A DNA stretch of 50,365 nt. Origin: an uncultured Planctomycetales bacterium. Its GTDB lineage: Bacteria; Omnitrophota; Gorgyraeia; Gygaellales; Profunditerraquicolaceae. Below are positions 5,254 to 50,365 of the stretch, piece by piece (positions within the stretch are counted from its first letter, which is position 1; each line of letters begins with the position of its first letter). Both the position numbers and the translations under genes were made by a program. The stretch covers positions 1 through 50,365 of the forward strand of contig CAZAPM010000016.1 in assembly GCA_964487475.1 (NCBI GenBank), given 5' to 3'. Below the pieces are notes generated by a model. That model was not told where the DNA came from. It did no database searches and worked only from the letters and a program-made list of their open reading frames with translations.

Positions 5254-5264
5254 GATCCTCCTCG

Positions 5265-6242: not shown

Positions 6243-6251
6243 AGTAACCCT

Positions 6252-20528: not shown

Positions 20529-20529
20529 C

Positions 20530-23735: not shown

Positions 23736-23739
23736 ATGC

Positions 23740-24621
23740 TTACTGCAAGCGCCATTTTGAAAAACGGTACTGAATGAACGAGATCGCCACCAACACCACT
23801 CCGAAACTGATACCCTGCGCGCAGGCGTATCCGAACCTGGAAGAACCCCGCATGGACGCGAGAATGCGCAGCACCGGGACGGAGGTATGCCCGGCGAATT
23901 CCCCTCCCACCAGCCCGAGGATCAGCACGAACGCCTGCATCGTCCCCAGCACGGTCAGGATCGCGACCAGGCCTATGACCGGCATCATCAAAGGCACGGT
24001 GATGTTCCTGAACTGCTGCCAGGCGTTCGCCCCGTCCACGCGCGCCGCCTCATAAAGCTCCTTGGGGATGGTCTGCAAACCGGCCAGGAACACCAGGAAC
24101 CCCCAGCCGAACCCCTTCCAGCTGTGCACCAGCGCCACGGTGGTAAGCGCGGTCTTAGGGTCGGAAAGCCAGTGGTGCGTCCACTGCGAAAGACCCGCCG
24201 CGGTCAGTGCCCGGTTGATGACGTTAGCCCCGTCGATATCGTTGATGATGAACCGCCAGGCCATGCCCACTACCAGTTCGGAAAGGATCGGCGGCAGGAA
24301 GAAGATCACCCGGTAAAAATTCTTCATCCTGATCTCGCGGTCGCAGGCCCAGGCCAGCATGAAGGCCAGCGCATTCTGCAGTGTCAGCGCGATGACGGTG
24401 ATATACCCCGCGTTCCAGATCGAACGCCACCATTCCCGGTCCACGAACAGTATCTCTTTGAAATTCCCGATCCCCACCGCGACCGGTGCGGCGGATATCC
24501 CGTCCCAGTCGAAGAACCCCAACTGGAACACCTTGATGAACGGATACACGTAAAAGATCCCGAAAATAAGCACTGCCGGAAGCACGAACACGTAATTCTC
24601 GAACGCGGACCTGGCTTTCAT
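23740..24621 (-). CDS. Carbohydrate ABC transporter permease (MalF-like)
   Basis: VGIGNF, YRVIFFLP and LAGLQTIPKELYEAARVDGA motifs. Confidence 0.93.
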   Translation of the reverse strand: MKARSAFENYVFVLPAVLIFGIFYVYPFIKVFQLGFFDWDGISAAPVAVGIGNFKEILFVDREWWRSIWNAGYITVIALTLQNALAFMLAWACDREIRMKNFYRVIFFLPPILSELVVGMAWRFIINDIDGANVINRALTAAGLSQWTHHWLSDPKTALTTVALVHSWKGFGWGFLVFLAGLQTIPKELYEAARVDGANAWQQFRNITVPLMMPVIGLVAILTVLGTMQAFVLILGLVGGEFAGHTSVPVLRILASMRGSSRFGYACAQGISFGVVLVAISFIQYRFSKWRLQ

Positions 24622-24637
24622 ACCCCTCCGGATCGCC

Positions 24638-25948: not shown

Positions 25949-25977
25949 ACTTGGATTTCCCTGCACAGTATTAAAGA

Positions 25978-26006
25978 AGTATACCATTTTACTATACCTA
26001 AATCAA
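25978..26006 (-). promoter_or_regulatory. Sigma70 promoter P1 of the sugar ABC / GH operon
   Basis: TTGATT (26006-26001), 17-bp spacer, TATACT (25983-25978). Confidence 0.7.
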
Positions 26007-26159: not shown

Positions 26160-26879
26160 CTACTTGGTCCTGAGCACACGGCTCAACCCCATAAGATCGG
26201 CCTTTTCCAGACAGATACCCACCCGCTGCTTCCCGTTCTCCAGCACATTGGTCCACGCCACCGAACCGCGGTTGTACAAAGGCTCCCCCTTATCCGGGAT
26301 GTGCAGCCACATCTCGACCTCCCGGGGGCAGGAAAGCTTTTCCTCATCCAGGACCAGGCCGACACCCTTGGCGCTGATATCCATGGCGTACGCCTTTGAC
26401 TCCTCTCCGGTATTGACATCCAGCACGTCCACAGGGACCGCCACCGGGAACCGGTTAAACACCCTTCTGTCCTCAATCGCCACATGTTCCGACATGACTT
26501 CCGTCCTTTCTGCGGGATCGATATCCCACCATTTACCTACCACTTCCTGCGGATAGTTCTTTTGCACGAACTGATAAATCTTTTCCTTATCCATATCCCT
26601 GATCTTGCTGAAGTACAGGCCGCATAACGCGCTGCCCTCCACTGCCTTATGCCAGACTACCCACACCTCCACCTCCAGGGTCAGGTCATCGCTGAGCATG
26701 ATCGAGACTTTGGCGTATTCATCCCGGCAAAGACGCTCCGGCATCACCACGGAGAGCCCTTTCAGGCTGATATCCCGGATCAGACAATCGGTGTATGTTT
26801 CCTCGTGCGCCATTTTGATCCTGGCTTTTTTTGCCAACACCCATCTGGCATTGTTACGTTTATCCTTTTCCTGTTCCAT
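26160..26879 (-). CDS. Tandem PilZ-domain protein (c-di-GMP receptor)
   Basis: Two domains, each with RxxxR and DxSxxG: KRNNAR...DISLKG and RRVFNR...DISAKG. Confidence 0.88.
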   Translation of the reverse strand: MEQEKDKRNNARWVLAKKARIKMAHEETYTDCLIRDISLKGLSVVMPERLCRDEYAKVSIMLSDDLTLEVEVWVVWHKAVEGSALCGLYFSKIRDMDKEKIYQFVQKNYPQEVVGKWWDIDPAERTEVMSEHVAIEDRRVFNRFPVAVPVDVLDVNTGEESKAYAMDISAKGVGLVLDEEKLSCPREVEMWLHIPDKGEPLYNRGSVAWTNVLENGKQRVGICLEKADLMGLSRVLRTK

Positions 26880-26950: not shown

Positions 26951-29900
26951 TTATTTCAACATCCTGCGCTCCATCGGCCAAAGTATCTCCACCACCAGAT
27001 GTCCGTAATCGATGCGGACGCTTCCCATGAGATCGAACGCTGCGGAAATATCCGCGGCCGCGTCCAAAGAAAGTCCCATCCCCCGGGCCACCTCCTCGGC
27101 GCTCCACAGGATCTCCCTGGTGCGCAGCCGCTTGCTCTCCTCGATGGTCCTGGTCGATGCCGCGGGCATGCGCAATACGTACTCGCGCACGCGTTCACGC
27201 AGCACCTTGATATCCGAAATCCCTGCAGCCTCCTGAACACTCTGCGCTGCCTTACGCTGAGCAGCGATCGCCTCTGCGGCACACTGCATGGCATACACCC
27301 CCTCTCTGAAATACTCCAGCACCCGCGCTCCCAGGGAAGGATCACGCCAGTCAGTCTGACGTATCCACGGATCATCCCTGTGGCGTCCGGCCACTTCTAC
27401 CGCAACATCGAGCAGCTGCCTTTGCGCAACGCCATACTCCCTGCCCAACCTGCCGGCGCCTGCAGCCAGGAAATACAGCAGGAACATCCCGGCGGGAACC
27501 TTCTCCTTGCCTCTGCGCGTACGGGATACCCGCGCCTTTTCCTCATATCCGGATCCCGGATCATCTTCCGTATCCATTTCCTCTCTGACCGCCTCCCTGG
27601 ACGCGATGAACTCCAGGATATCATCATCGACCTCATGCACTCCCACCACCTTGACCAAATGATGACAGAGCGCCAGGGCATCCTTTTCCTGGAGGGTCCC
27701 CAGCCACACCAGCCGGTTCGCCACGCCGGAAATGACCTGCACCGCCATATCCGTGACCCCGTCTTTCCCGCAGATATCCCGGGAAAGCCTCGCGATGATA
27801 AGGCTCTCGGGAAAGATCGCCTCATCCGGTATCCCGGAAAGGAACACCCGGGCATTGGACACATCGCCGGTATTGATGAGGTAACGCGCCAGGAAGAACG
27901 CCGCCAGAGGATGCGCTTCGCCCAGCTCCCGGGGCTTCAACTGCAACGATCCGAAGTTGAGTTCTGCCTGCGCCAATTCGGCGCATGAAGCGCTGAAGAT
28001 CTCTTTCGCCTGCGTTTCATCGCGCAATGCGGAGGCGAACAGAAGCATGAGCGAAGAATCCGCACCCTCCCCCTCTTTCTCTTCTTCCTTCTCTTCTTCT
28101 TTCTCTTTCTCTTCCTCTTCCTCTCCTGCTTCCTCCACCGCATCTTCTTCCGCAACCTTCACCCCGAGAAGGTCCATCAGGGGAGCCGGAAGCGCCTTAC
28201 CCTGCAGGAGAAGCTGCCGCAAAGAGCCCTCCGCTTCCGGCTGCTCCAAACGCAACCTGGCCTTACCCGAAAGCAACGCCTGTTTCACCGCGCCCGCGCT
28301 CTTCGCCTTTCCCTTATCCGTGTCGCTGGAGATCCCCGCCTCATGCGCCTTCTCGCCCAGACGCTCCAGGCTATCTTCCCGCAACTCAACGGAGAGAAAT
28401 CTCCACATCAACAGGAGCGCTTCGGAAACCGTAAGCAGCATGAACCTCTCCCGCACGGTTTCCCGATCGGCAATCCCGTTTTCCTCTCCCAGCCACTCCC
28501 ATCCGTCAGCCAGCGGCTTGACCGCAAGCGTTTCAATGGCGCGCCGCAGCGCTCCCGGCTTATTGACCAGCGCCCCCCATATCTTGCGCAATGAAAAATC
28601 CGCTTCCTGCGCCTGGGGCTGCATACGGGCCAGGGCATTCACATGCAGATGATTCTCATCCTCGAACCCGGAAGACTCGCTCCTGCGCGTTCCCCCCAGG
28701 CCGTACTGCACGCATGCACTCATCCCCTCGGGTCCGCTCAAGCGCAGGAACCGCGCCCGAGCCTCATCAACCGTCACTTTGGCGTCCTCGGCCATCCACG
28801 CCCAGCCGTCGGGAAGGACGGAAAGCGGGACCTTCGCCACCAATGCCTTGACCAGATCCGGCAAATCGGTGACGGAGGCGATGCGGCGGATGGACTCCTC
28901 TGCTTCGGGAATCTCCTCCTTAAGGCGGCCGACACCCTGCAGCGTGATGTTGACCAACGGAGCCTCATACTGATACCCCAAATTCCTGAGTTTCTCCTTG
29001 ATCACCCCATGATCCCCGATCCTTAAGAACACGCACCCGAACCTCCATGCGATCGCCAGCGCTTCGGGAACGGAGACCCGGGAGAAACGGGCCTTCACCT
29101 CTTCGACGGACAATTGCGCATACTCCGCAAGCCAATGCCATCCGTCGGGAAGGACGGGGAGGTTCTCCGCGATGACCACGGAACGCACCATCTCCGGCAG
29201 GGACATCCCGGTGTTGAACACCCTGCGCAGGGATTCCTCCGATTCCGCATGCGTCTTACGCAGCACGTTCATCGCCCGGAACTTGATCTGCATCGCCAAA
29301 CTCTCGCTGATCACGGTCCCGGCATCGCTGACCAGCGGCACCTGGGCGAGCAGCGATACGATCCGCGGATACTCCCGCTCCCGCGCCACGCCGATCCCGT
29401 ACCAGTACAGTATGATGACGGCCTCGGTCACGGAGAGAAGGATAAAACGGGATCTGGCCTCGGCCGGCGTGATGTTCAGGTCATCCGCAAGCCATGCCCA
29501 TCCGCCGGCAAGGGGCGCCAGCTGCAGCACGGCCATCACCCGGCGCACCTCATCGGGTATCACCGCGCCGTTTCCCGCGATCCGGCGCAGCGAATCCGGG
29601 CTCTCCCCCGCAGCCCGGCCGAGACGCTGCAGCCCTTTTCTCAGGAAATAATCCGGCCTCTTTGAACCGCACCCGGGGAGCGCCTGCATCTTTGCCCCGA
29701 TCCGGCAGAGATCGCACCGGGGATTCTCCAGCCCGTAGAACAGCGCGCCGGCAAACGCTTCGGCAACGGAGCAGGTCATGAATCGTGACCGGACGATATC
29801 CACCGTCACTCCTGCATCCTCGGCGATCCACTGCCAGCCGCTTTCCAGAGGCGTAAGATGCGCGTGTGCGATCAGGTCGACGAGCACCTGCGGCAGCACC

Positions 29901-32900
29901 ACTCCGGCGACTTTCGCGATCCGGCGCAGAGACAGCGGCGCTTCGGCGGAACGGTCCCGCAGCCTGGCCTGCGCATAACGGCGGCTGGAGGCGACACTCG
30001 ACCTCTGGAACTCATCGCCGTCCTCGTTGCGTATACCCAGCCCTTTGAGCCAGCGGATCAACTGCCCGTCATTCATCCGCTGACATCCGATCCCATAGGT
30101 GCCGGCAATGATGACGGCCTCGGCAATAGAAAGCCAGAGGAAACGTTCCTTTGCATCGGGCACCTTTATCTTGAGCTCATCTGCCAGCCACTCCCATCCG
30201 TCGGAGTAACGCTGCAGGCGTTCCCAGGAACCTTCTGCAAGCCCGGGGTCGGCCGCAGAGAAGAACTCCGTCCCCTGATATATGCGCATATGCGGCTGAA
30301 GCGCGAGCCTTTCGGCTGACTCAAGCATGCGCAGCCGCTCCTCGGTAACCCCCTTCTCCTGCGCTGCCGGCTCGAAAATATTTCCCGGGTCCCGCAGCGC
30401 CTGTTCAGCCTGCGCGCTGTCAAGCAACATCCCCTCTATCCCGCCGCACCATATCCCAAAACGTCTTTCCACCAGCAGAGACCCGCGATAAAGCGCATAG
30501 GCCGCAGAAGGCCGGGATCCGAACACAAAGATATCCCCGGAAACCGGGTCGGCGAACATCCCCGGCTCCATCATCCGCATCGCCAGCCATAGCACATCCT
30601 CCTGCCGCGCATCACCGCGCTTCTCCATGAGCGCCGCGCACATGTGGTTCTGAGAAACCGAAAGCGTCACTGCTTCGGGCGGGAACTGCGCCTGGAAATC
30701 CTCTCCCGAGCCCCTCACGGCAAAAGAGTGCGGCATCGTGATCGCGAACTCTCCCCTCTTTACGGACGTGCGCCCTGACACCTCCACGATCTGATACCCT
30801 TGTGTCTCCTCAGACCAAACCAGGAACGCCTGGGCATCGGCACCCGCGAACCTTTGGCCGAGGTTGAACGCGTTCTTGACCTTACGGTTGCCCAACACCC
30901 CGCACCTGCCGTCGCTCGAAACGGTAAGCCCTTCCACCCGCAGCAAATCCAGTCCCGCCTCATGCCACTTCCTGCCGTTGTGCTTCGGGGACTTGCCGTA
31001 ATAGCTGTCCGCCAGCGCGAAATCCTCTCCCAGGGCGCGCGTACGTCCGTACACCTTCACCCAGGGGATGGTATCCGCGCCCGTCTGCTCCCGCTTCGTC
31101 GCTTCGGCATACATGAACACATATCGTGAGACAAAGATAGACCACTCCATGAACACCGCGATGCGGGCGCGGCCATACGCAGGGCCGAAATCCGTACGTT
31201 CTCCCATAACCCTGAATTTACCGCTACCCGGAATCTGCGGTATCTCGATCCTGATCTCAAGGTACCCCTGGTCATGCCAAAAACGCGCGTCATCCTTGCA
31301 CGACTCATACGAATGCAGCTGCTCCCACGCGGCATCCTTTGCCTTGCGGCCGTAGACGTTTTGCACACGCTGACGGCCCGTTGCCCGGGGAACGCTCACG
31401 CGCACGGCGGGAGAAGCGGCTTTCTGCTCGGGAAACAGATCAAACCCGAGCACCTCCCGCACCGCATTCCTTTTCGCGGCGATCTCCTCATCCTTCACCG
31501 CACCGTCCTTCCTGATGCTTCCGGGAATACCGTGGTGCGCTTCCCAGTGCACTACCAGCGCCCTGACCCGCTCGAGCTTTTCCTCGTCGCTGCCATCCCC
31601 CACGGGAAAACCCGCCTGAAGCAGCCTCCCGGCCAGATCCTCATGCGTCAGACCAAGGCACAGGCGCAGGGTACGGAAATTGTTGGGATACGGCAACGCC
31701 GCGATCTGCTCCCAGGTCAACTGCTCCCTTTTCATCAAAAGCACCGGATGTATCCGCAGCCCGCGGGAAACGGCAAAAAGATTGTGCGCATCCGGAAGGC
31801 CTGCCCGGGTCTTGGCCGCGATGTACGAGGTACATTTCATCCCGCCCCGCGCGCAGATCGACACGTCCATGATCCCGCGCGCTTTCTGGACCAGCAGGAT
31901 GATCTCCCCTACGGTCTTCGAGGAGATCTCGCGCAGGACCTCGGGGGAAAGAGGCTCGAGGATATACCCCAGGCGCTCATCGTACACCGCCGCGGGAAGT
32001 GACGATGCAGCCCCTGCGGAGGACATCGCTGCCAGCCGTTCCCGCGCATTACGCAGCGCCTCCTCGGCCCGGCGGCGCAGCTTTTCCATACGCAAGCCTC
32101 CGGCAGCGAGTTCCTGTAACGCCTGCGCATAACGCACGGCCGACTCCTCTACCGCCGCAATGTCCCGGGGATGCGACGACGTGGCGGCATCGGCGGCATC
32201 GACGACCCCTTTGAGCAGGGCCCGCACGCGCGCCGTCGGAAGCGAAACGCTTTCCTCACCCCCTATGTACGCATCATCCAAGGAACGCAGGTCCCATAAG
32301 GAGCAGGTATCGGCGTCGGAGGCTTCGGCGACATGGTATACCGCGACCTCCCTTCCTTCCACGAACGACCACATCGGTTCCTTGCGCACGCTAATCCTCC
32401 TGGCCCGGCGCTCTCCGATGAAGAAAACCGCCTCCGGGATGCGGATCAGATGCCTGCCGAAACGGGGCGAGAACACCGCGACACCGGGATCCCTTCCTGC
32501 GGCAGCGCGCACCTTCGCCAGGAACGACCTCTGCTGCCTCGCCGAGAAACGGGAAAAAAGGCAATTCCGACGCAGGTTGGCCAGGGTCAGTGCGCAGAGA
32601 CCGGACCAGCCGCTCAGCATATACAAGAACTCCCGGGTATTCCTCATCGTCATCAGCTGCCACTGTTGCAACCAGCCGAACGCAACCTGCATCTGCCCCA
32701 AAAGGCACTCCGACATGATCCGCTGTATTGCAAGCACCGGAACCAAAGGCGTAGGAACCTCCGCCACCGTACCTGCCTCTTCGGACGGAGCAGCCTCCTC
32801 CTCTCCGGCAGGGATCGCCAGTAGGAATCCGGTAAGATTCCCGTGATCGCGTACTACCGCCTGCACCAGCGTGCCGACCTGCGCGGAAACATCCTCATCC

Positions 32901-41900: not shown

Positions 41901-44900
41901 TTTTCCGCATACCCGGTTCCCGTCAGGATCCCGGGGATCATCGCGATCGGAGTCCCCCACCAGCGGGAGAGCCAACCGTCATAGAATCCGTGCAGGACCA
42001 TCACCGCAACCAGTAAACCCAGGATCACCGGCCAGGAGAAGAACAGCGCCGCAGGCTTTGCCGCCAGCAGCGGCAGGAAATAGAGCGCACGGATGACAAG
42101 CGCTGCCGCCTCTATACGCAACAGCCCCGGCACCAACGCTCTCCCCTCCGTTGCCTCGGGGTGATACCAGACCAGGGAATCATCGCCCTGCCACTGCGCA
42201 AAGCCGGTGGCATGCGCAACAGGGGTCAGCATTACGCTGACCGCATAAGAGGACAGGAGCGCCTCGAGGAAAGGAAGAGCCCACCAATGCATGAGCGCCC
42301 AGGTCCCGCCGGTGATCACCAGCAGTGCGAATAACGGTTCTTCCAACGCCCCACACACCGCTACCGCCCAGCGCAGAGGCACTCCCACACGGAAAAGGAA
42401 CGCGCCGACCGTCCTGGCTGCCAGGCGCGTCATGGCCAGCGGGACGCCTCGCGATGCGCCGGTATTGATACTCGGAAGGTAACGCTTCGCGCGCGACCAC
42501 CAGCGGACGATCCTTGTGCGCAGACTCCAGGCAGCGACCCGCTGCGGGAATCCGGTCAACGCTTCGAGCCGCTGCATCAGCTGTTCCTTCGAAGTGATCC
42601 TTCGGGAGAATTCCGCTGCCGCCGCCACCGGATCCTCCCCCTCCCCGCGGCGGGCAAGCGCCAGCACCGTTTCCCTCACCGCTGCCGGTACATCCGCGGC
42701 GGTCATGAAGGAGAAATCGAATTCCCGGTTGGAGAGGAACTCCTGATGCAGCCGCGCGGAGAATTCCACGATCCGGGAGATCTCGCGCCGGATATAGCCG
42801 CGCCGGGACACAAAAGGCGGCAGGTACATCCCGCGCATATGCAGCGCATGCAGCACTTCCTCTTTGGAACGGCTGCGCATCGCACCCTGGGCGTTAAGCC
42901 CTGCGGAAAGCAGCAGCGCATTGTTCTTGGAAAAATACTCGAAGAGCGCGGGTTTCCCCAGCAGTTTCCCGGGTGCGGCATAGACCCATGATCCGGCGGA
43001 ACGGAGGATCTTGAGCCTCAGGAACGCGGTCGAGATACCCCGTTCGCGGGATTCCAGGTCGTTAAGCACCGGAAGGTCCACCTCTCCGAAAAGCACTTTA
43101 TTCTCGTCGGTACGCCGGTTCGAGGTACAGTTGAAACGCACATACTTCTGCCAGCAGTCCTGCGGCAGGACCACGAAGGAGACCATTTTCCCCCGCTGCT
43201 TGGTCTCGTCCACTTCCCCGGTGCGCGCATCGAAGGTGAAATCCCTTCCTTCCAGCACCTGATACGCCTTCGCCACGTCTTTAACGATCAGCAGGTTATC
43301 GTAATCGGAATATTTCTCCCCGGCGATAGAGGAACCGAAGGCAATGACGCTGACCAGGTTTTCCCCGAGATTCTCCCGCAGCCAGGGGACATACCCGAAT
43401 TTCTTTTTCTCTTTGGCCGAAAGTTCTGCCCGGCGGTGCACCGTGGAATGATCGCGGCACGCCAGCGGAATGCGCCGCACATACTCGAGGAATTTCAACT
43501 TGATAAAGATGAGCGCTTTACGGTGGTACTCCTGAGGCAGGCGCTCGAAGAGAGACACCTCGAGGAACTCCTCCTCCTCGGCGTTCAGCAGCCCGGTAAG
43601 TCGCATGAGCATGGTCATGCGGTTATAGATATACACTTTGTTCTCGAAAGTAGACTTATCACCCCGATCATGGGTAATGAAGGAATCCAGGGTCGCGGAT
43701 TTCGCGGTCAGCTCGGTCTGCAGCTGCAGGAGATAACTGCACACCACCTCATCGTCGGTAAGCTTTGGACCGGAGAATAATTCTGCGAGCGCCTGGGCGC
43801 CCAGAGTAGCCTCAAGGGAATGGAAATATGTCGGAAGGTATACGGAAAGACCCTTCAGCTCCGCGGCAGGCCAAAGGTAATTGATCCCATCGCCGAAACG
43901 GGAGTAAAGCGCGGCGATCTGCTCGGCGCGAGGAACGGCATCGGTGATGAAATAACGGAAGGTCCTGGCTCCTTCCTCGTTGCGGCCGCTGCCGTACGTA
44001 CGCTCTCCCTGCGCCAGGATGGAAAGCGCCGGAGGGGCGCGCAACAGGCCGCGGCGCACCAGCCATTGGCGCACGAACGGAAGGGAAATTCCCAGCATCC
44101 CCATCCCTGCACCGGAAGCGGCCAGGCCGGCTGCCAGAAGCCCTACATGCCAGAACAAGGACATCGCCTCCGGGAACGCTCCGGCATCAGGAGCAGGCGC
44201 GTGCGGGCCCAGGGAGCTCCGGTCAGGATTGAAGTTATCCAGCACTGCCCCGGCATCATACTCCAGCGGCGCGGCGCGCATCCGGGATTGCGCTTCATAC
44301 CAGGCTATGCGTGCGCGCACATGCTCGTTGATATCCCTCTCCTCTTCCAGCACCGGGGCACGGCCCAGCCAGATCGGGCATTTATCGGGCCCGACCGGAG
44401 TATTGCTGATCGCAGCCGCCATCTCCACCTCGATGGCGTGGGCCTCCTGCGGGGTCAGGGCGCTTCCGCGCACCCTTTCCACCGCTGCCTGCGCCTCGTA
44501 GAAAAGGTGTGAGTACTGCCCGCGCAAAAGGTCCAGCGCCGGCTTGACCACCGCCTTTTCCTCGGGAGTAAGGTTACGGATCACCGGCTCCTCCTGCGCC
44601 AAAGGAGCGCGGCGGGAGAACAGGAACCTGTGCGCCACGGAAGGGGGTGCCTGCGGTCTCGCAGATTCATTCGACCCCGCCTCAGGAGCGCGGGAAGGAG
44701 CATCCGCCGGATCGAGTTTCGTCCGGAGATGGTGCGAGGTCACGGAAAACGCGGTAGCGGCAAGCAACACCGCCATGCTTTTTTCATTCTCGGAAAGCCC
44801 GAGCTTGGCGATCCGCCGGCGCGCATTTCCGCGGCATATCCCCGCGCAGAAAAGGAGTAACACCGCCGCGGCCGCGAGCACGGCATACGGAGCATGTATC

Positions 44901-47900
44901 CACCAGGGAAGCAGCGCGATCGCAGTGGATACCACCGCCAACAGAAGCGTCATGACCAGGAGGACCCCTCCCGCTTCACTGCGGTTCAAAGGACGTGCCC
45001 CGTCCCGGACCACGAACTTCCCGGCCCAGGGGACCTGCAAGTATCTCTCCTGAAGATGCACGATAACCTTATCGATACTGCCGTCGGAATTCTTCACCGC
45101 CCGGGTAAAATACGGGAAATGTCCGCTGTTATCCGATACCCGGGTGAAGAACGCCTGTGCCGCTGCCCTGCGGGCAACCGGGATATGGAAATATTTGTAT
45201 CCGTTACGCGCATAGAGCTCGCACTGCGTGCACAAAAGCGTCCAGCCCGCCCGTACTCCGTTGTGACGCAGCCAGGGCATGACGTAAAGGCCTTTACCCT
45301 CGATCTCCCGATACTCGGGGGAAACCCTTACCCCGTATATCCCCGCGGGCCTTCCGTGACGCAGCGCGATCAAGGCAAAGTAACGGGGATCATGGAGATT
45401 CTCTCCGGCTGCGGGAACGAACACTCTTGCCGCCTCCGCTTCACGCTGCGCGCACAACGGCACTTCCGAAGGGTGCACCTTGGTCAGCGCCTGAGCAAAG
45501 GGGATCCCGGAGTGCGGATGGTACATGACGAAGTCCAGCTCCCCGGAATGCCAGGAATCGTTCCCGTTACCGCTCCCGCGCTCCCATACCGGCAGATGGC
45601 CGGCATGCTCAGCGGCGATGAACGCGCAGTCACAAGCCGCTTCTCCCAGCTCCGCCTCGTCATTTTCGCTTAAACATCCGGACAGTTTCCCGGAATCAAA
45701 ATCCTCCGCCGTAACCTCCCTGCCTGCGGCGCGGCACAGCTGCACCCAGAGCCGGTGGAATTTCAATAGACTGCGCGCCTCCGCATCCCCGATCAGCTGT
45801 AACTGCAGCAGCAGCTCCACGTTATCCTCCAGCGCAGGCCTGGACGCAAGGTGATACCGGGCGCACAGGTCATCCGCCAGGAAAGTCGCCGCGTTTTGAG
45901 GCTCCGGCTCAACCGCAGGAGCAGAAACGGGAACGAAGGTACGGATACGCTCCAACATCGCCGCACGGTGGCGCACCTGCCGCCATTGCGCCACACCGTA
46001 AAGCGCCCCTGTCTCCAGAAGCACGCTGGCCGCCGCCGAGAGCAATCCGGCGCTTAAAGGAACCAAAGAGAAATGACATATCAAAACCTTATAGAATACA
46101 ATACAAAGTATGGCTGAAGCCGAAAGGAATGCCATGAGCGGCAGGATGGCAAACCCCTGCACGGAGCGCGGCTGCTGCGCTGCGGCCAGGGAAGGTCTTG
46201 GAGGCGCACGGTGCTCATCGACATTACGGTAAAGCGCGTACACAAACCACACCAGTGCGGTCGCCTGCCATTCATCGATCCCATGGGTCAGGGTCAGCAC
46301 GCGCCAGGCGTCAAATACCTTCTGATGCTGATCCTGCCTGAAATCCCGGTGCGCGAATATCCAGCACAGCAAAGACGCCAGCACTTCATACACCGGCGGC
46401 GGCATCTGCAGATCGAGGATCCTTCCCAAACACTCTTCTTCATTCTTGACGCCCTGCGTGTGCTTGAAAAAATCATCCTGGGGCAGCATCTCGGTCACGA
46501 GCAGGAACCATTTCGGATTTTGACCGGGGACGAGCTTGCTCGGGTAAAAGGCACCGTCGGCCATCCCGGCCAGCGCCAGCACGCCCGCGCCTGCCGCCGG
46601 CCAGCCCAGGACGCACGCGGCCAGGAGCGCCACCGCCATCGCCGCAACAAAACGCGCCACGGGGAAATGCCGGTCCATCTCGTTGACCACGGTAAGATAT
46701 TTCGGGGCCCCGCACCTTTGCAGATTGAACCAGACCGCCAGGTCACGGAAGAAATCCGGCTTTTTGTGTTTCGGGTATTTCAGCTCCAGCACCGCCCTTC
46801 TTCCCGGTTCCGTCCAGATATCGACGCGGGGCAGCGCCGGCTCCAGCAGGAACCCGTGGAATACCCCCTGGGCGGGATACCCCCGCACCTTCCGGTCAAA
46901 GGTGATCCGCGCCACTCCGCCGCCAGGCAAAGGCCTGAAATATGCGGTCCGGTCGTACACCACGTATGCCTGCGGCACGGCATTAAGGTCCCAGAGCATA
47001 TCGCAGAACTTCCGCAGGGCATCAAACTGCTCCTGCCAGTCCTTCGCATCGGGAGAGGCAAGATGGTCCCGATGCGGCAGCGCACCCGCCAGGATCATCT
47101 CGCCCGCGTCCCGGCGCAGGGCGGCGCGGTCCTTTGACACGTCGATCGGCCGGGCGCGGTTCTTGACCTCGGAGAAGACCGGAGAAGACGGCGAATCGTC
47201 GTAATAGCGGAGTCGCAGCTTGAAGAACTCCGGCTCTTCGCTTTGCACCATCATCGCCAGGTCGAACCGCGGAGAATCCAGATAGAGGCTGGCGACCTGA
47301 TATGACCGGCCGGAGCCGTTCGATGATTCTTTGTCATGGGTCCAGCCATCCCGGATCACCAGGTCCTCGATCTTTTCGGCCTGCGACTCATGCAGGAAAT
47401 ACTTCTCTTCGTGCCGTCCCCGCATGGGAGAATGCCCGCCGTTGTTACCGGCATCCATCGCCCGGTCCTGCAGCCGCGAGAGCCTGGGCAGATTCTTGTA
47501 GCGCATGGTGCGCAGATCGCTCCAATGATACCCGTACCGCGCCAGCACCTGCCAGGAGATATCCCCCTGCGCGCGGAATATCCCGGTGAGCGTCTCGTTG
47601 AGCTCATGCGGCAATCCCAACCGGGCGAGGAACTCATGGAAGACCACCTCGAGCTCCGAATGCCCGCGGTATCCTCCGGCACGGATGAACATCCTTACCC
47701 GGCGGACGCTGCGATCCAACGCGATGAATCCCCCTCCGAAATACGCATGCCTGTCAGAAACAAAGCGTATATCACCCTTACCCCACATCTTCTCGAAGAT
47801 ATCGGCGAGATTCCCCAGCCCCTCCCGCGAAAGGTAGTCTATGATGAACGCGGCGTGGCCAAAGGGGATACGCTCCGTCCGCTTTGCCCGTACCTCCCGG

Positions 47901-50365
47901 TCGATCACCTTCTGCCGCCGCTTCCATATCTTTTTGCGGTTCGCCCCATCAAAGGAACGATCGTTTTCTTTGGCAGAAGAAGCCCGATACTTGCGGGCGA
48001 CCGTCGCGTCCTTCGCCCCGGCCAGAGGGATCACCTCGTTGAACGCCTCGCTCGGAGGATTCGCGGTGTCCTTTGCCCGGTGCGGGTCGGCGTGCATTTT
48101 GGCCTGCGCGATCCTCAACGCCGTTTGAGCGCCGCGCTGCATCACGGTCAACCCTGCTAAATACAGATACTTTTCCCCCCGCGAAAAATTGAACCCGCCG
48201 ACCGCATCCCTCAGCGCGTTTTCCGCCGCCTCCGCCAGCGCTTCCGGCATCACCCCTGCCTGCTGCGCTTCCTGCGCAAACCATCCGGCGACCACGGGTG
48301 CCCGCCCGCGTAATCTTTCGAATGTCTCCTGCGCGATCCTTTCGCGCTTCTGAAGGATCGTTTCCACGTCGATGTGCCCGTGCCCGTTGCCGTTACCGTT
48401 GCCGCGCACGGGAGCGACACACGCTGCCAGGCTGAAGAACACCCACCAGTCCGTACCGCGCAAATGCGCCTGCTTCCAGGTAGGGAGCTCCAGGAATATC
48501 TCCTGTATGCGGCGCAAAGAATCTTTGGTCGTTTCCGGCAAAGAATCCACCAGCGCAGCGACGCTGCTCTCCCTCGCTTCCCGGATCTGATTGAACATCC
48601 ACAACTCCTCCCACCCGGGGATCACGCCGCGCTCGACCGAGTCGACGGGATTAGCGCACTGCAGTATCTTTCCGCACAGCACATCGAGGAAGCGGTGCGC
48701 CGGAAATGCGCGCAGCACCCGCATCCTGTTTTTCTCGTCCATCAGATGCAAAACGTAGAAGGCGATCATTCGCGGTGAGAACTTCCAGCGGTACTCGTCG
48801 TCTCCGGGACGGGAGGGATCGAAGATATCCCGTAACAGCCGGCCGATCAACGCGCCTGAGGGCTCGAACGCCTGCTCCGGCAGCGCCGCGAGAAGCTCCT
48901 TCGCCTTATCCGGGACCCCTGTCTGCAGGAAGAAACGGACCATGGCGAACGCGAGCAATGGCTCATTCCGGGAGACCCATGCAGGCTCGGCGAGAAAATA
49001 CACCAGCGGGATACCGGCGGCAGATGCCTCCTCCGCGCTCATCCCGAAAAGCTCCCAGGAATCCTCCCGGGAAAAATACAGGAATGCGGCTGCCAGCCAC
49101 ACCAGGAATTCGCGGGTCACCTTCTTTTCCGGGTTACGCAGCACGGACAATCCTCCCAGGGCGATCCCCAGGGTCGACTCACCGGTCTTATAATCCTTCT
49201 CCGGCGCCAATCGGGTATCCACCACGGCCCTGGTCCGCTGCTGCCATTCCTCCATCGAAGCATTCCCATTGAGCGCAACCACAGGCGGGGCGTTCGCCAG
49301 CGACTGTTCGAACGCATATTGTATCTTACTGCGGCGGAAACCGGGCAACGTGACCCCGAAACGGTCCGCAGCATAGTATAACGCATGATCGCGATAAGGG
49401 CCGTCGGTAAGCCCTTTGGCGTGTATGGGCAGCCCGCGCGCCTGACGGGATTTGATCTCCCGCACCACATCTTTCTTTCCCGGATAGCGCCATACGCCCG
49501 AAGGCAACGCAACCTTGAAATGCCGGGCGGCGTTGAAAAGTTTCCAGTTCTTGTGCGCCCCCTTCTGCAACGCGCTGGCATGGCTGGGAATGCCTGCCTT
49601 GACCCGATCCTCGATCGCTGCCTGCACTGCCCTGGCATCCTCGTACTCGAAGCGCAGCGCCTTGGGAAGCGTGATCCCGAAATGGGCGCTCATGGCAGCC
49701 AGTGCCCGGTCCCGATGATCGCCCTTGTGCAACTCGCGGTAATTGTTCTTCCATCCCCGTGCCGTGCGCCGGGCCAACTCGCTTCTCACCGAGGAAGCGG
49801 TCGGATACCTGGCCAGCGGGCCTCCGGGCACCTGGGGAAGCTTCACCTTGAACCTGCGCGCCGCATTGTATAACGCGGGATCCGAATTCTCTCCCTTGCC
49901 CAGCGCCACCGCGTTATTGGGCTTTCCCGCTTCTTTGCGGCGAAGCAACTCTGCGCGCACCTGTCCGGCATCCTTATACTTCGGCAATGCGGTAGGCGAG
50001 CGGGGAAGCGCTACCCCGAAATGCAGCGCGGCGGTATACAATCCGCGGTCGACGTGCTCTCCCCGCTGCAGCGCTCCGGCATTATTGGGCTTACCCGCCG
50101 ATTCCCGGCGCGCCATCTCTGCCGCGACCGCCTCGCGGGAAGGATACTTGTATTTCAGGGGCGCGGGAGACAAGGCAACGCCGAACTTATGCGCCGCGGT
50201 ATAAAGGGATTTATCCTGATGCGCCCCCTTCTGCAGGGAATATGCGTGTGTCCCGATCCCCTGCGCGCTCCTGGCAGCTAACGCCTGCGTTACGGACTCA
50301 CGGTCGGGATATTTAACCAACGCGGCGGGGAGCTTCACGTTGAATTTATACGCGGCAGTGATCAG
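26951..50365 (-). CDS. Giant multidomain membrane-associated protein, at least 7,804 aa, 5' end outside the window
   Basis: Stop-free frame for 23.4 kb. The 27 nt upstream of the track's GTG (50338) read LITAAYKFN in frame and continue the repeat pattern, so the true start is beyond 50365. Contains many recognisable domains. Confidence 0.92.
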   Translation of the reverse strand: MITAAYKFNVKLPAALVKYPDRESVTQALAARSAQGIGTHAYSLQKGAHQDKSLYTAAHKFGVALSPAPLKYKYPSREAVAAEMARRESAGKPNNAGALQRGEHVDRGLYTAALHFGVALPRSPTALPKYKDAGQVRAELLRRKEAGKPNNAVALGKGENSDPALYNAARRFKVKLPQVPGGPLARYPTASSVRSELARRTARGWKNNYRELHKGDHRDRALAAMSAHFGITLPKALRFEYEDARAVQAAIEDRVKAGIPSHASALQKGAHKNWKLFNAARHFKVALPSGVWRYPGKKDVVREIKSRQARGLPIHAKGLTDGPYRDHALYYAADRFGVTLPGFRRSKIQYAFEQSLANAPPVVALNGNASMEEWQQRTRAVVDTRLAPEKDYKTGESTLGIALGGLSVLRNPEKKVTREFLVWLAAAFLYFSREDSWELFGMSAEEASAAGIPLVYFLAEPAWVSRNEPLLAFAMVRFFLQTGVPDKAKELLAALPEQAFEPSGALIGRLLRDIFDPSRPGDDEYRWKFSPRMIAFYVLHLMDEKNRMRVLRAFPAHRFLDVLCGKILQCANPVDSVERGVIPGWEELWMFNQIREARESSVAALVDSLPETTKDSLRRIQEIFLELPTWKQAHLRGTDWWVFFSLAACVAPVRGNGNGNGHGHIDVETILQKRERIAQETFERLRGRAPVVAGWFAQEAQQAGVMPEALAEAAENALRDAVGGFNFSRGEKYLYLAGLTVMQRGAQTALRIAQAKMHADPHRAKDTANPPSEAFNEVIPLAGAKDATVARKYRASSAKENDRSFDGANRKKIWKRRQKVIDREVRAKRTERIPFGHAAFIIDYLSREGLGNLADIFEKMWGKGDIRFVSDRHAYFGGGFIALDRSVRRVRMFIRAGGYRGHSELEVVFHEFLARLGLPHELNETLTGIFRAQGDISWQVLARYGYHWSDLRTMRYKNLPRLSRLQDRAMDAGNNGGHSPMRGRHEEKYFLHESQAEKIEDLVIRDGWTHDKESSNGSGRSYQVASLYLDSPRFDLAMMVQSEEPEFFKLRLRYYDDSPSSPVFSEVKNRARPIDVSKDRAALRRDAGEMILAGALPHRDHLASPDAKDWQEQFDALRKFCDMLWDLNAVPQAYVVYDRTAYFRPLPGGGVARITFDRKVRGYPAQGVFHGFLLEPALPRVDIWTEPGRRAVLELKYPKHKKPDFFRDLAVWFNLQRCGAPKYLTVVNEMDRHFPVARFVAAMAVALLAACVLGWPAAGAGVLALAGMADGAFYPSKLVPGQNPKWFLLVTEMLPQDDFFKHTQGVKNEEECLGRILDLQMPPPVYEVLASLLCWIFAHRDFRQDQHQKVFDAWRVLTLTHGIDEWQATALVWFVYALYRNVDEHRAPPRPSLAAAQQPRSVQGFAILPLMAFLSASAILCIVFYKVLICHFSLVPLSAGLLSAAASVLLETGALYGVAQWRQVRHRAAMLERIRTFVPVSAPAVEPEPQNAATFLADDLCARYHLASRPALEDNVELLLQLQLIGDAEARSLLKFHRLWVQLCRAAGREVTAEDFDSGKLSGCLSENDEAELGEAACDCAFIAAEHAGHLPVWERGSGNGNDSWHSGELDFVMYHPHSGIPFAQALTKVHPSEVPLCAQREAEAARVFVPAAGENLHDPRYFALIALRHGRPAGIYGVRVSPEYREIEGKGLYVMPWLRHNGVRAGWTLLCTQCELYARNGYKYFHIPVARRAAAQAFFTRVSDNSGHFPYFTRAVKNSDGSIDKVIVHLQERYLQVPWAGKFVVRDGARPLNRSEAGGVLLVMTLLLAVVSTAIALLPWWIHAPYAVLAAAAVLLLFCAGICRGNARRRIAKLGLSENEKSMAVLLAATAFSVTSHHLRTKLDPADAPSRAPEAGSNESARPQAPPSVAHRFLFSRRAPLAQEEPVIRNLTPEEKAVVKPALDLLRGQYSHLFYEAQAAVERVRGSALTPQEAHAIEVEMAAAISNTPVGPDKCPIWLGRAPVLEEERDINEHVRARIAWYEAQSRMRAAPLEYDAGAVLDNFNPDRSSLGPHAPAPDAGAFPEAMSLFWHVGLLAAGLAASGAGMGMLGISLPFVRQWLVRRGLLRAPPALSILAQGERTYGSGRNEEGARTFRYFITDAVPRAEQIAALYSRFGDGINYLWPAAELKGLSVYLPTYFHSLEATLGAQALAELFSGPKLTDDEVVCSYLLQLQTELTAKSATLDSFITHDRGDKSTFENKVYIYNRMTMLMRLTGLLNAEEEEFLEVSLFERLPQEYHRKALIFIKLKFLEYVRRIPLACRDHSTVHRRAELSAKEKKKFGYVPWLRENLGENLVSVIAFGSSIAGEKYSDYDNLLIVKDVAKAYQVLEGRDFTFDARTGEVDETKQRGKMVSFVVLPQDCWQKYVRFNCTSNRRTDENKVLFGEVDLPVLNDLESRERGISTAFLRLKILRSAGSWVYAAPGKLLGKPALFEYFSKNNALLLSAGLNAQGAMRSRSKEEVLHALHMRGMYLPPFVSRRGYIRREISRIVEFSARLHQEFLSNREFDFSFMTAADVPAAVRETVLALARRGEGEDPVAAAAEFSRRITSKEQLMQRLEALTGFPQRVAAWSLRTRIVRWWSRAKRYLPSINTGASRGVPLAMTRLAARTVGAFLFRVGVPLRWAVAVCGALEEPLFALLVITGGTWALMHWWALPFLEALLSSYAVSVMLTPVAHATGFAQWQGDDSLVWYHPEATEGRALVPGLLRIEAAALVIRALYFLPLLAAKPAALFFSWPVILGLLVAVMVLHGFYDGWLSRWWGTPIAMIPGILTGTGYAENYTPAVRNVSAEVSTILYPACGKDMPTVLFLLTICEHAGEVVLIDNEEQFIISKALEALLRAVRISQGRFSVAAIEGEGTRVQAQILPAIGMEREEIRVRISPELGEGEELTVTLHDSSLNREIKVRFLHRDYSQRIDGLAGISDLTVVKQPGFAGGLSYDDRSRLYYRNAMAHTRTGKYLLVVQARPPGYALMQGLKIVETNVEPEKVQALFVVPRISNVLGFGSYILMQKTGEGLFEHGFVQVSPYHLSRDPRTVPFCVNDVTAQEPLFRQMVSQAARLLQPFTSLPVSLRDLPQEVPGISAAVADLGEQPTGSFKPWMCFGVAKRVAYLAREGIGALTVISATTGNQGIALSYVVSRLRQVYPQVRIDLLIYVSKEAFEEKIAKMERFGARVVRGPSADLPYEDYEQAYAAARKRAFELHPDALFVQHADWQAIEGYTALAEATLDAYALRSNGTTGALAVIIPVGAGGLASGFALAAKLRDPTIMIVLVQTTRTRHLFESFLKGRIVEYFDPDQREVFSESGIDTKKLEPQAFHILYALADHVVTVDWQDVPAAIDFYRRQGAVAEGAAVLPYLAFGRISRELKGSGVSRALLVSTGRNASPVQSQFATSCGFMLLAVHLAAGPYLWALGIIFLAVWFFAAVSDPWKVSEVRGAKRWRAMSGMTAASWALAALWDAVDGGGIGAGLGTILLRALIVSIPLLIMGALWRPVYDAIVDWRDSRRRAKAVKRMLEGKFTIRALVEGAEIREFSDVRAQLLLLADDLMFVARRLAKYLEESGKLTGPPADIQDLEFARSSPGGWRWREGLSEQIVRQAIREVLEERSLNFTENVLIAHIIAHEKAHVEDGCVNRELPAQRAHARLLRVMRGLDIRSYRLERNDPAGRLICEGYVLNRGEQLKVQVMLRFNERAAKGCPDKWMTGDFGEAQYAAEKLLRSDLVRELSSVEGAAPLPWQVLEETMDELFDWMEYTLRCGNCITEAVVESLFFQPTSEQRYEVAVNLSSMTLTMYAGKPAVSLSDAALEIDEKYPYLLEHIFVKKVKRISAHRRLWHAVSMRRLATLPEKERRKYKPLAKVISRHGAVKDGDLVAGEPGKAAYHAFRARMLIGVALKPENAQEFPAPLRVHLEELYASLEGVASLQYECEIPPSQREGILACIFRMFVWMKERDRGLHEAARLILADIIANLVYLREALKSQRRDYEFSAYKKAYSAVLGLLRQAGGSDAAVRERALRALAQWQQDWEDGRLSVLDGGRANNPRDILIGHLDHHKLYPGCREGILAFFAGRPHHWQQQLINRIIRLCLNRADMHLVDLARDMHGDARFSRTRHFLGNLLRISPLLIAAAVLLSVFCPAAGAAVLFVGSVHGGRKGEPGEKGFDGLVDSIMGAGARAAAACAPEALKEAVAELRGQFPPQSFGMVPFIKSGRPVFTEATARELKCGDCCVMTFFVIEALLHRFPGVPVEAVSRVISFGPPTTHMQARILTSRGWYLVGITPGDLLLFPEGMVPEEDFLRRVPCRDIGRVSAAAFMAQTRELLFTKTREWYLRLGILQEHLPARNIDHMAWCSCRGEFTYFGLCAIQDLQVSAHTAPRNEYRVVVMVHQDDFKIFQERVRHAGPAGLFDAIAQWHAQDLCVMGVIQEDATEGRILQAASYARAEALYQLIVALPESHFVRACALPEVEGLLDEVHACFRAMPPARRAGKAAGEESDIAAYISSCPAIPLDTAVGGYTFHIQEFFSYPQSCQEVIMRLAMRGVPSSQAVRMLEETVGLEFRGSECRVSENQIRRGGKGITAVRGTGIVHGRFLRHAEAAGKSVLFTGLIDKVMAAHNGTRWSPKDVYAALVAYWMYARLAQNHPEETAAVFEDAIDAQGLLASCRSELLSEERTGRPLPQAGSPKGSRSNAKICLAEDVSLPQPLIERIRKIVTTDFRDLRPGIDYDFIEGRSLYIDVVKLLGAPVLWQGKPLGCLKLKGACFNGDETLLPFDGLFPLIVDFGPRGEIVRQHLKQKKPTGAMTLDTVDNELVLTDLAWRNGLYMAFPVGKAEFGDLLYEGMKLGVLILGVPLGQDTDFRSALAQMSGRGERGSGDVFHFYIEHEKTKVNRDKIIAFIRDAGAAYCVLHDIGIRHNMASFGNILAAPFGRVRISDLEYSQRMEEGPLAREVAWRVNDIRGYFTALERSLAAQLITDFRERFGIDLHQEFVIGYLKKGIPRFGERYASQRLLNGLLATLNDYAGANRQEDLLAQDDLLRALRDTVAAAPSRMRRDRLVQGKFGAVLPGDRVEDLAGRDSGMPKEMISLTGAHSVDLTIDREAVSAMESADRELLFQLLTGDIETQERLLRRYPLQVQQRYKDVALGKGVEGRTLYLILSKPVICRGVRISVLRLKGVRPRVGPDAKVAEYYGWGWLPRVLGISRPSTITVIPGAADHPAGTLTYDGALMEFSVMEAARAPECLFRTDYPVGFGEYTGLHGPGGRLGFVICGMGSEDFRVDTQDAFSAEGMFGMCAQINRLDAVAESQVRPFQVRIAAGRESAFARGIGRAFRAFHDAGFAHLFPHLGNMGVPGSGEGIIIRDLNTAVRIDAADPSEYRAGMRFMDVARILSELLQFKIGRTVDDHESEAYSYGLDRLVLPFLEGYFHEADHASGVFTRMAEACGSRDFLDRYQQLLGIAYSGIQIDSDVLTVSHPQFGPVYAFLCKTEAVVLIRPVKAGKESSASRKFARDEEEAPDLLKAAEILLSKGLLRRVRSGEYRQNGENCVAIARFLSEKLGYRYPLERELRAAFRGMQQGIRGHSASASRSGAALVIYHYPFVTEGRPFHVFLRIGETEYNFGAGDHDGYYDRHEIPLVSGVGTQRIERQAYALHSAGSSGLPEIPELKGEVAERFPGYDGVVKLAAALEAGPSPELLQAVKAAKQKVVAGFAQMDPLMKDLSGGKVTAGGLSAFFEGYNRVYETTIIPSVNEFSAQEATRPLAAFLEDSYSKIICYLGCAHGSIAGKKAAADEDVSAQVGTLVQAVVRDHGNLTGFLLAIPAGEEEAAPSEEAGTVAEVPTPLVPVLAIQRIMSECLLGQMQVAFGWLQQWQLMTMRNTREFLYMLSGWSGLCALTLANLRRNCLFSRFSARQQRSFLAKVRAAAGRDPGVAVFSPRFGRHLIRIPEAVFFIGERRARRISVRKEPMWSFVEGREVAVYHVAEASDADTCSLWDLRSLDDAYIGGEESVSLPTARVRALLKGVVDAADAATSSHPRDIAAVEESAVRYAQALQELAAGGLRMEKLRRRAEEALRNARERLAAMSSAGAASSLPAAVYDERLGYILEPLSPEVLREISSKTVGEIILLVQKARGIMDVSICARGGMKCTSYIAAKTRAGLPDAHNLFAVSRGLRIHPVLLMKREQLTWEQIAALPYPNNFRTLRLCLGLTHEDLAGRLLQAGFPVGDGSDEEKLERVRALVVHWEAHHGIPGSIRKDGAVKDEEIAAKRNAVREVLGFDLFPEQKAASPAVRVSVPRATGRQRVQNVYGRKAKDAAWEQLHSYESCKDDARFWHDQGYLEIRIEIPQIPGSGKFRVMGERTDFGPAYGRARIAVFMEWSIFVSRYVFMYAEATKREQTGADTIPWVKVYGRTRALGEDFALADSYYGKSPKHNGRKWHEAGLDLLRVEGLTVSSDGRCGVLGNRKVKNAFNLGQRFAGADAQAFLVWSEETQGYQIVEVSGRTSVKRGEFAITMPHSFAVRGSGEDFQAQFPPEAVTLSVSQNHMCAALMEKRGDARQEDVLWLAMRMMEPGMFADPVSGDIFVFGSRPSAAYALYRGSLLVERRFGIWCGGIEGMLLDSAQAEQALRDPGNIFEPAAQEKGVTEERLRMLESAERLALQPHMRIYQGTEFFSAADPGLAEGSWERLQRYSDGWEWLADELKIKVPDAKERFLWLSIAEAVIIAGTYGIGCQRMNDGQLIRWLKGLGIRNEDGDEFQRSSVASSRRYAQARLRDRSAEAPLSLRRIAKVAGVVLPQVLVDLIAHAHLTPLESGWQWIAEDAGVTVDIVRSRFMTCSVAEAFAGALFYGLENPRCDLCRIGAKMQALPGCGSKRPDYFLRKGLQRLGRAAGESPDSLRRIAGNGAVIPDEVRRVMAVLQLAPLAGGWAWLADDLNITPAEARSRFILLSVTEAVIILYWYGIGVAREREYPRIVSLLAQVPLVSDAGTVISESLAMQIKFRAMNVLRKTHAESEESLRRVFNTGMSLPEMVRSVVIAENLPVLPDGWHWLAEYAQLSVEEVKARFSRVSVPEALAIAWRFGCVFLRIGDHGVIKEKLRNLGYQYEAPLVNITLQGVGRLKEEIPEAEESIRRIASVTDLPDLVKALVAKVPLSVLPDGWAWMAEDAKVTVDEARARFLRLSGPEGMSACVQYGLGGTRRSESSGFEDENHLHVNALARMQPQAQEADFSLRKIWGALVNKPGALRRAIETLAVKPLADGWEWLGEENGIADRETVRERFMLLTVSEALLLMWRFLSVELREDSLERLGEKAHEAGISSDTDKGKAKSAGAVKQALLSGKARLRLEQPEAEGSLRQLLLQGKALPAPLMDLLGVKVAEEDAVEEAGEEEEEKEKEEEKEEEKEGEGADSSLMLLFASALRDETQAKEIFSASCAELAQAELNFGSLQLKPRELGEAHPLAAFFLARYLINTGDVSNARVFLSGIPDEAIFPESLIIARLSRDICGKDGVTDMAVQVISGVANRLVWLGTLQEKDALALCHHLVKVVGVHEVDDDILEFIASREAVREEMDTEDDPGSGYEEKARVSRTRRGKEKVPAGMFLLYFLAAGAGRLGREYGVAQRQLLDVAVEVAGRHRDDPWIRQTDWRDPSLGARVLEYFREGVYAMQCAAEAIAAQRKAAQSVQEAAGISDIKVLRERVREYVLRMPAASTRTIEESKRLRTREILWSAEEVARGMGLSLDAAADISAAFDLMGSVRIDYGHLVVEILWPMERRMLK
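28190..30210 (-). repeat. Six tandem ~105-125 aa protein repeats within the giant ORF
   Basis: Recurring [DSG]GWxW[LIM][AG][DE]...RFxxxSxxEA...[YF]G...L...SLR[RKQ]I pattern, six times. Confidence 0.85.
49340..50365 (-). repeat. At least six complete and one partial ~55-aa tandem protein repeats within the giant ORF
   Basis: Consensus [KR]YPxxxxVxxE[LI]xxRxxxGxPxxAxxLxKGxHxDxxLYxAAxxFGVxLP. Confidence 0.88.

Follow-up and report, generated by a model that had tools for sequence, protein, structure and literature searches.

How does a bacterium use a protein of tens of thousands of residues in which unrelated domains stand in a row: as one chain, or as many proteins cut from it? The question is raised by contig CAZAPM010000016.1 of GenBank assembly GCA_964487475.1, from an uncultured Planctomycetales bacterium placed by GTDB in the Omnitrophota. 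The whole contig of 50,365 nucleotides was analysed and is referred to here as the window. Its minus strand holds an open reading frame (ORF) of 7,804 codons (26951..50365), the 3′ part of a giant gene whose 5′ end is open at the contig edge; an earlier sequence-only reading had described it as a cassette array of effectors. From its sequence features, we tentatively interpret the product as a self-processing polyprotein that would be cut at or next to hydrophobic helices, releasing cargo that acts in a cytoplasm, possibly inside an attached prey cell.

Extent and integrity of the gene

The window is the entire contig C16 of a 1.87-Mb assembly of 36 contigs. Over the length of the giant frame the other five frames carry 58-263 stops each. 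Contigs from four public sequencing runs of three studies (wastewater, biogas and sludge metagenomes) tiled positions 30366-50365 in 30, 30, 29 and 25 of 30 bins, with no joints and a single 6-nt indel that stays in frame; none of the contigs in these four runs spans the whole interval. The run covering the window best may come from the source sample of the assembly. Among 128 variant sites, the 40 listed touch 34 codons, where 24 changes are silent, ten are missense and none creates a stop. Because other runs cover the stretch and 24 of the 34 variant codons are silent, the frame is real, and the gene is under purifying selection. The uninterrupted frame reported earlier therefore stands, and the misassembly or chimerism that might have undone it was looked for without a joint being found. 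Strain differences are patchy (window positions 43736-44111, 47183-47188 and 50228-50290, with long identical stretches between them), as expected from short-tract recombination. No RNA dataset was among the matches listed for the window sequence in public runs.

Further giant frames lie on other contigs of the same genome: C5 (7,707 and 9,464 aa flanking an assembly gap), C36, C23, C28, C33, C34, C22 and C15 (16,838 aa). With C16, the ten giant pieces total 55,838 residues. The window frame is likely the 3′ end of a single gene of ~55,800 codons split over these pieces, and we are highly confident that one gene runs from C5 to C16; the giant noticed earlier is thus real, with only ~14% of the likely gene inside the window. 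C5 overlaps C36, and C22 overlaps C15, by 55 nt each; since only these two joins are shown by overlap, at most ~22,500 residues are contiguous. The same array of ~55-aa repeats closes C15, with five copies, and opens C16, with six; an internal paralogue of this repeat module on C15 is complete with 12 repeats, so the gap between the two contigs should amount to about one repeat. In relatives the gene is found in one piece, from the same head to a PilZ gene, as an open frame of 30,185 codons in genome G096 and of 68,606 codons in G049 (contig C1). The C5 head was matched in 13 of the 15 relatives searched.

In Pfam scans, residues 216-301 of the C5 head, whose linkage to the window is inferred, match Peptidase_C39 (E=1.3e-7), and LysM-YkuD and M23 domains follow. 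The middle pieces hold GH65, alpha-amylase, ROK, PfkB, HAD, NUDIX, M50, helicase and TPR domains together with racemase, GT2, GNAT, alanine dehydrogenase and HATPase, and HEAT domains occur in the giant pieces as well. In the same scans of the giant pieces dockerin gave no match and methyltransferase none above cut-off. A simple hydropathy scan, used in place of a topology predictor, gave 55 peaks over the ten pieces, nine of them in the window; the hydrophobic helices said to punctuate the frame are thereby confirmed. Shortly after dnaA-gyrB-gyrA-glmS-like genes there is a second giant of 5,011 aa (L014:637-15669, G000 C2), and a similar one is spread over contigs C32-C25. The heads of both are unlike the C39 type and match other giants.

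Cassettes and the joints between them

Relatives were sampled as the DNA upstream of 40 PilZ matches, picked from 150 listed for room on the contig. A frame of at least 1,000 aa precedes the PilZ gene in 35 of the 40 and one of at least 5,000 aa in 28; at most of the remaining loci the frame is interrupted by contig ends. When the tails of the relatives' giants (42 ORFs, last ~6,000 residues) were compared with the window's 7,804 residues, two BLAST matches were found. Six cassettes are common to the window giant and that of genome G167, at 29-55% identity and in changed order: VTC, h1, PALP, CH2, helix-turn-helix (HTH) and sigma4-like in the window, against PALP, h1, VTC, CH2, sigma4-like and HTH in G167. 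The cassettes are hypervariable and reordered between relatives, and this comparison of domain order bears out the idea of a cassette array. At least three cassettes of the window giant have free-standing relatives in the same genome. The G167 giant changes frame at L159:7369-7529, and the giants of loci L015, L024, L045, L053 and L054 end in low-complexity tails rich in Gln, Pro and Asn.

In many relatives the joints carry a short soluble tag. At least eight [SA]SP[VAIL] tags (Ser-Ser-Pro, or SSP, type) occur in 17 of the relatives' 42 ORFs. Of 96 shared segments, 17 span an SSP tag where 50.5 were expected, and 49 end within 15 residues of one, compared with 8 of 96 placed at random. In the 17 ORFs (L015-L054), across genera, the tag is written with preferred codons: TCG and CCG account for 200 and 248 of 338 cases, where other SP pairs have them in 62 and 101 of 313. 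This hints at a constraint on DNA or RNA besides the peptide. Even so, 159 of 167 hits of the DNA word fall in the coding frame, and AGY codons serve for Ser as well. The G049 giant is without SSP and repeats GSVDNGG instead (DNGG 15 times), and L045 and L032 share a repeated hydrophobic unit starting KKG-[IL]GEVCTMLG, possibly another junction type. C16 shows no excess of such tags (SS[PAS][VIL] once, 1.2 expected; DGG twice, 2.2 expected; RSExR absent), and the other pieces are alike.

What stands at the distal joints of the window giant is a hydrophobic helix. A rule drawn from this protein itself, an uncharged helix of 30-45 residues ending hydrophobic-Gly-Met/Ser, fits 11 of 27 long uncharged stretches in C15 and C16, 8 of 308 in ordinary ORFs and 1 of 96 in relatives. 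In this distal part of the chain (C15, C16) the helices sit just before cassettes. None of 30 homologous segments spans a junction helix (2.8 expected) and five have an edge at one (1.2 expected), in a small test whose segments are not independent. What precedes the ~55-aa repeat cassette is an SSP tag in L038 and L081 and, at two places in C15, a hydrophobic helix; that a helix replaces the soluble tag before the same cassette supports the joints being functional. We consider it probable that helices ending hydrophobic-Gly-Met/Ser serve here as Ser-Ser-Pro does in relatives. No shared DNA motif was seen at the junction helices. Internal prepilin-like (class III) sites were considered as another explanation and rejected: they occur in 11 of 40 isolated helices here and in 46 of 231 in ordinary ORFs, and the giant contigs have no N_methyl match.

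Several results pull the other way. Beyond the origin of the rule and the size of the boundary test, none of 12 helices in the proximal pieces fits the rule, and residues 4190-7804 of the window frame contain several cassettes and no such helix. In G167 the rule fits 3 of 33 stretches, compared with 5 of 100 in ordinary ORFs; helices in G167 end LGTV, LASV or LGMV. Widened on sight of G167, the rule picks out 14 of 33 there; C15 and C16 then give 11 of 25, of which one lies within the M50 domain, ordinary ORFs give 6 of 100, and other relatives 4 of 85 and 5 of 56.

Domains of the window frame and its neighbours

The frame and the genes that follow it are laid out below, all on the minus strand and in the order of translation.

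49331..50365, minus: six basic three-helix repeats of ~55 aa and one partial repeat
47966..49330, minus: helical region, for which the sigma2 call is unsupported
46676..47479, minus: VTC domain (E=5e-23; 55% identical to a cassette of the G167 giant)
46559..46669, minus: hydrophobic junction helix, ending LAGM
45086..45448, minus: weak GNAT-like domain (E=0.003, below cut-off)
44081..44158, minus: shorter hydrophobic junction-like helix, ending MLGI, chosen by eye; it fails the helix rule
42806..43876, minus: cassette with GS and DxD motifs, weakly nucleotidyltransferase-like; motifs kept in one homologue (G052)
41936..42448, minus: multi-helix membrane module, resembling a CPBP protease by eye only
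41126..41908, minus: segment first read as methyltransferase-like, unsupported
40076..41068, minus: pyridoxal phosphate (PLP)-dependent enzyme (PALP, E=2e-30), with a homologue in the G167 giant
39296..39748, minus: small HExxH domain (HEKAH, residue 3663), weak: motif and one homologue, L094
37796..37915, minus: hydrophobic junction helix, ending FVGS
36926..37768, minus: first Cys-His segment, with no family match and no homologue found
35147..36199, minus: kinase-fold domain 1, catalytic Asp replaced
33938..35017, minus: kinase-fold domain 2, catalytic Asp replaced
33326..33781, minus: second Cys-His domain, weak; Q, C, H and N kept in one G167 homologue
31427..31978, minus: tandem XRE-type HTH pair
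28166..30226, minus: six ~115-aa repeats, weakly sigma-70 region 4-like; four related copies in G167
28061..28153, minus: acidic tract (20 D/E of 41 residues)
26160..26879, minus: double PilZ gene (Pfam match), directly downstream, a conserved neighbour of giant genes
22887..25987, minus: sugar ABC uptake genes, a solute-binding protein (SBP_bac, Pfam) and two permease-like genes named by sequence
17918..23190, minus: two glycosidase genes, weakly GH2-like, with a choice-of-anchor J-like gene

The sequence-only reading had made 15 domain calls, of which six are supported, five weak and four unsupported. Within the window's giant frame only VTC and PALP exceed Pfam cut-offs, which settles those two, and the acidic tract is as described. 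The ~55-aa helical repeats are also borne out, by six full copies and by a structure model of a three-helix unit (pLDDT 92.9). They are basic (61 K/R to 27 D/E), recur 17 more times on C15 and, in a search with a single query, were found in 1 of 60 other genomes. The model had no Foldseek match at E<=0.001 (best Z 3.2), which is not proof of a new fold. Together with the region at 47966..49330, the repeats form a paralogue of C15 residues 15301-16053 (34% over 767 columns). That region had been read as sigma2-like, a candidate that falls away: hhalign gave 1%, and a genome-wide Sigma70_r2 search had no match here.

The two pseudokinases hold up through their family, whose profile matches PknA (E=1.5e-6). 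The family, which is unnamed, counts 204 cluster representatives, which stand alone as proteins of 350-450 aa or lie inside giants with differing junction tags; its consensus HxxPHxGN replaces the catalytic Asp, and the Lys, Glu, Asn and DFG Asp are retained. The two domains here are 24% identical to each other. The XRE pair is upheld through a relative's copy that matches HTH_3 (E=2.8e-12), and the profile of the pair matches P22 c2 (E=0.002). Of the sigma4-like array, the six repeats are real and the likeness is weak: the best PDB match is RpoD region 4 (E=0.023), Pfam gives E=0.024 with a relative's copy, and hhalign 3-6%. The RNA-polymerase-binding modules once proposed depend on these two readings, of which sigma2 is unsupported and sigma4 weak.

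Other calls fared unevenly. GNAT remains weak, its match lying below cut-off. The nucleotidyltransferase-like cassette keeps its GS and DxD motifs in one homologue and has no profile match; the HExxH domain stands on its motif and one homologue. The second Cys-His domain likewise has no profile match, and its conserved Q, C, H and N form what we take to be a papain-like pattern. For the first, read as transglutaminase-like, neither family nor homologue was found, nor did the HE-type peptidase find any support. The segment called methyltransferase-like matches only ClpC N-domains (E>=0.015), and the CPBP resemblance at 41936-42448 has no profile match. Against PHROGs, nothing fell below E=0.01 among 22 window segments. 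Atlas and word-index homologue searches gave no matches; the word-index blanks carry little weight because the PALP domain too came up blank.

Among the neighbours, the solute-binding protein has its closest relatives, at 63-72% identity, in 80 loci mostly titled Candidatus Omnitrophota, a minority bearing other labels. The genes before the C5 head are presumably Tad-like. At 109-6965 the window holds what we take to be genes for phosphate uptake and for a two-component system (pst- and phoBR-like), and beyond these MnmG-like, ribonucleotide reductase-like, LacI- and ROK-type genes of an ordinary kind.

Proposed processing and delivery, and comparison with known systems

On the interpretation we favour, the last ~7,800 residues of a chain of ~56,000 would carry a row of unrelated, reshuffled cassettes, and the chain would be cleaved at or beside the short hydrophobic junction helices, freeing enzymes and DNA-binding modules to act in a cytoplasm. 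That the chain is cleaved at all seems to us somewhat more likely than not. The cargo domains depend on ATP, PLP, acetyl-CoA, NAD or DNA. Candidate proteases lie within the chain. The giant includes an M50 site-2 intramembrane protease domain (E=1e-15) and the G167 giant a CPBP protease (E=1e-18), and either may be cargo; it is doubtful, if conceivable, that the helices would be cut by the encoded M50 or another intramembrane protease. HExxH occurs 16 times in the giant, where 1.6 were expected. A module with the pattern RAPP...DIFRHExxH stands in seven copies between sugar enzymes on C22 and C23 (L010, L006); all seven retain H, E, H and a downstream E, and neither Pfam nor the PDB gave a match to the module. 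Many relatives' giants, too, carry R[AG]PP in excess.

Export through the neighbouring Tad-like machine, breaching of the wall by LysM-YkuD and M23, and release in prey might follow as one sequence of events, a proposal we advance with less than even confidence. A head with wall-cutting domains, cargo that is hypervariable and, for at least three cassettes, paralogues that stand free all agree with delivery to prey. A giant protein reported to be threefold up in attached cells (PMC10066038) would also fit delivery. A wider version is speculative and on the whole distinctly unlikely: Omnitrophota giants would be cellular polyproteins with interchangeable cutting codes, mostly a soluble tag, and in this lineage membrane helices with an in-chain intramembrane protease, so that pseudokinases, polyphosphate-type VTC and XRE/sigma4-like arrays would be freed only once the chain is seated in a membrane, likely the prey's, and would then reprogram the prey.

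A number of points tell against the polyprotein. Cleavage, export and delivery stay proposals, and C23, C28, C33 and C34 may stand in any order within the gene. The cargo consists in good part of everyday enzymes of sugar metabolism (GH65, amylase, ROK, PfkB, HAD), which the cell could use for itself. Possibly the helices do no more than anchor the chain in a membrane; the genome also has a free-standing M50, and that of the giant may be cargo. For the giant proteins of Chlorochromatium, no small fragments were seen on Western blots (10.64898/2026.03.19.712371).

The strongest alternative keeps the processing but has the polyprotein serve its own cell, supplying many ordinary enzymes and regulators at once, for example on host attachment, with no delivery to prey. 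The need of the cargo for cytoplasmic cofactors, its large share of sugar metabolism and the sugar uptake genes downstream agree with this, and membrane-anchored cytoplasmic enzymes are among the hypotheses left standing by Nielsen and Lui (10.64898/2026.06.07.730766). We nevertheless hold it to be unlikely, since the cargo varies so strongly between genera, includes pseudokinases and orphan repeats, has free-standing relatives of at least three cassettes in the same genome, and follows a head with wall-cutting domains.

Alternatively, the chain may stay uncut, as a membrane-anchored coat or mega-enzyme in which the helices are only anchors, hairpins keeping the domains on one side. A helix every several hundred residues or so is usual in the class (10.64898/2026.06.07.730766), an extracellular coat has been proposed for a 39,678-aa protein (PMC10066038), and unrelated giant symbiosis proteins seem uncut (10.64898/2026.03.19.712371). 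A plain anchor, however, has no need of a shared Gly-Met/Ser ending, relatives mark the same joints with a soluble tag of four residues, the last 6,285 residues of the G096 giant lack any long hydrophobic stretch, and DNA-binding modules would be hard to use when tethered in a 56,000-residue chain; this explanation strikes us as quite unlikely.

The joints could also be scars or targets of cassette-shuffling DNA recombination without meaning for the protein. The fixed SSP codons of relatives, the varying cassette order and the patchy strain differences would suit such an origin, which is improbable given that the SSP word keeps to the coding frame and its Ser is also AGY, that the junction helices here share no DNA sequence, and that this genome has the SSP-type DNA word at 11 dispersed places. 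Lastly, an assembly chimera or non-coding artefact, suggested by the breakage over many contigs and the want of a single spanning public contig, is largely refuted already by the joint-free tiling, the bias to silent variation, the codon-position GC pattern and the same gene context in relatives, and is extremely improbable.

Whether and where Omnitrophota giants are cut is a question posed in print. The mapped joints give definite positions for N-terminomics and definite protease-substrate pairs, and because the organism is present in wastewater, biogas and sludge metagenomes, its enrichment may be feasible.

The giant belongs to the known multi-enzyme proteins of Omnitrophota, published as Archaeovorin-type or 'multi-enzyme metabolic cluster' giants (10.1101/2023.11.21.568195; 10.64898/2026.06.07.730766). 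It had been recognised earlier as one of the giant multi-membrane-helix mosaics known from this phylum, and it is a real member (10.1101/2023.11.21.568195). With that class it shares the phylum, a probable length above 30,000 aa, the C39 head, many membrane helices, glycosyltransferase (GT), glycoside hydrolase (GH), HAD, NUDIX, GNAT, HEAT, TPR, ROK and HATPase domains, a secretion or pilus locus upstream, and PilZ, sugar ABC and glycosidase genes downstream. A very divergent SecA DEAD domain is reported in most members; in the gapped giant pieces SecA_DEAD had no match beyond one weak 84-residue stretch in C34, and in the genome otherwise only the housekeeping SecA matched. In the tail of the window giant, regulator-like modules outweigh wall-degrading enzymes.

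The locus had been put forward as the best candidate for an undescribed system, a claim that cannot be kept as it was made, for both the class with its flanking genes and the notion of cleavage have been published (10.1101/2023.11.21.568195; 10.64898/2026.06.07.730766). West-Roberts et al. 2023 (10.1101/2023.11.21.568195) proposed autocatalytic cleavage and remarked that known cleavage points are absent. In the available text of 10.64898/2026.06.07.730766 the words motif, cleav, linker and polyprotein are used 0 times. The accessible parts of the Archaeovorin papers name no cleavage points, whereas here the joints map to hydrophobic helices and to a repeated HExxH module. Junction signals in Omnitrophota giants were not found in the literature searched, which mostly excluded subscription papers. 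The hydrophobic joint, as a new element beside the published class, is moderately supported.

Among more distant systems, the giant symbiosis proteins that Kuzyk et al. 2026 describe from Chlorochromatium are epibiont giants whose transfer into the partner cell was shown; unlike the window giant they are hemagglutinin-like and repetitive and not enzyme mosaics (10.64898/2026.03.19.712371). Polyvalent proteins of phages and conjugative elements (Iyer et al. 2017) have 2-15 domains, and their interspersed HExxH peptidases have been proposed to process them (PMC5512222). Like the window giant they string enzymes of unrelated kinds and DNA-binding domains along a single chain with interspersed HExxH motifs, processing being proposed to follow delivery; the window giant, in contrast, is chromosomal, fixed before PilZ in relatives, and made of dozens of cassettes with many membrane helices. 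Its fixed position before PilZ, with no PHROG match at E<0.01, is not what a phage, prophage or conjugative-element origin would predict. MARTX toxins combine a conserved delivery part with a variable effector array and self-processing. Pfam scans of the window and the other pieces gave no match to the MARTX repeat, RTX or the C80 peptidase. The window giant shares the logic of MARTX in a chain more than ten times longer, with a target that is likely microbial.

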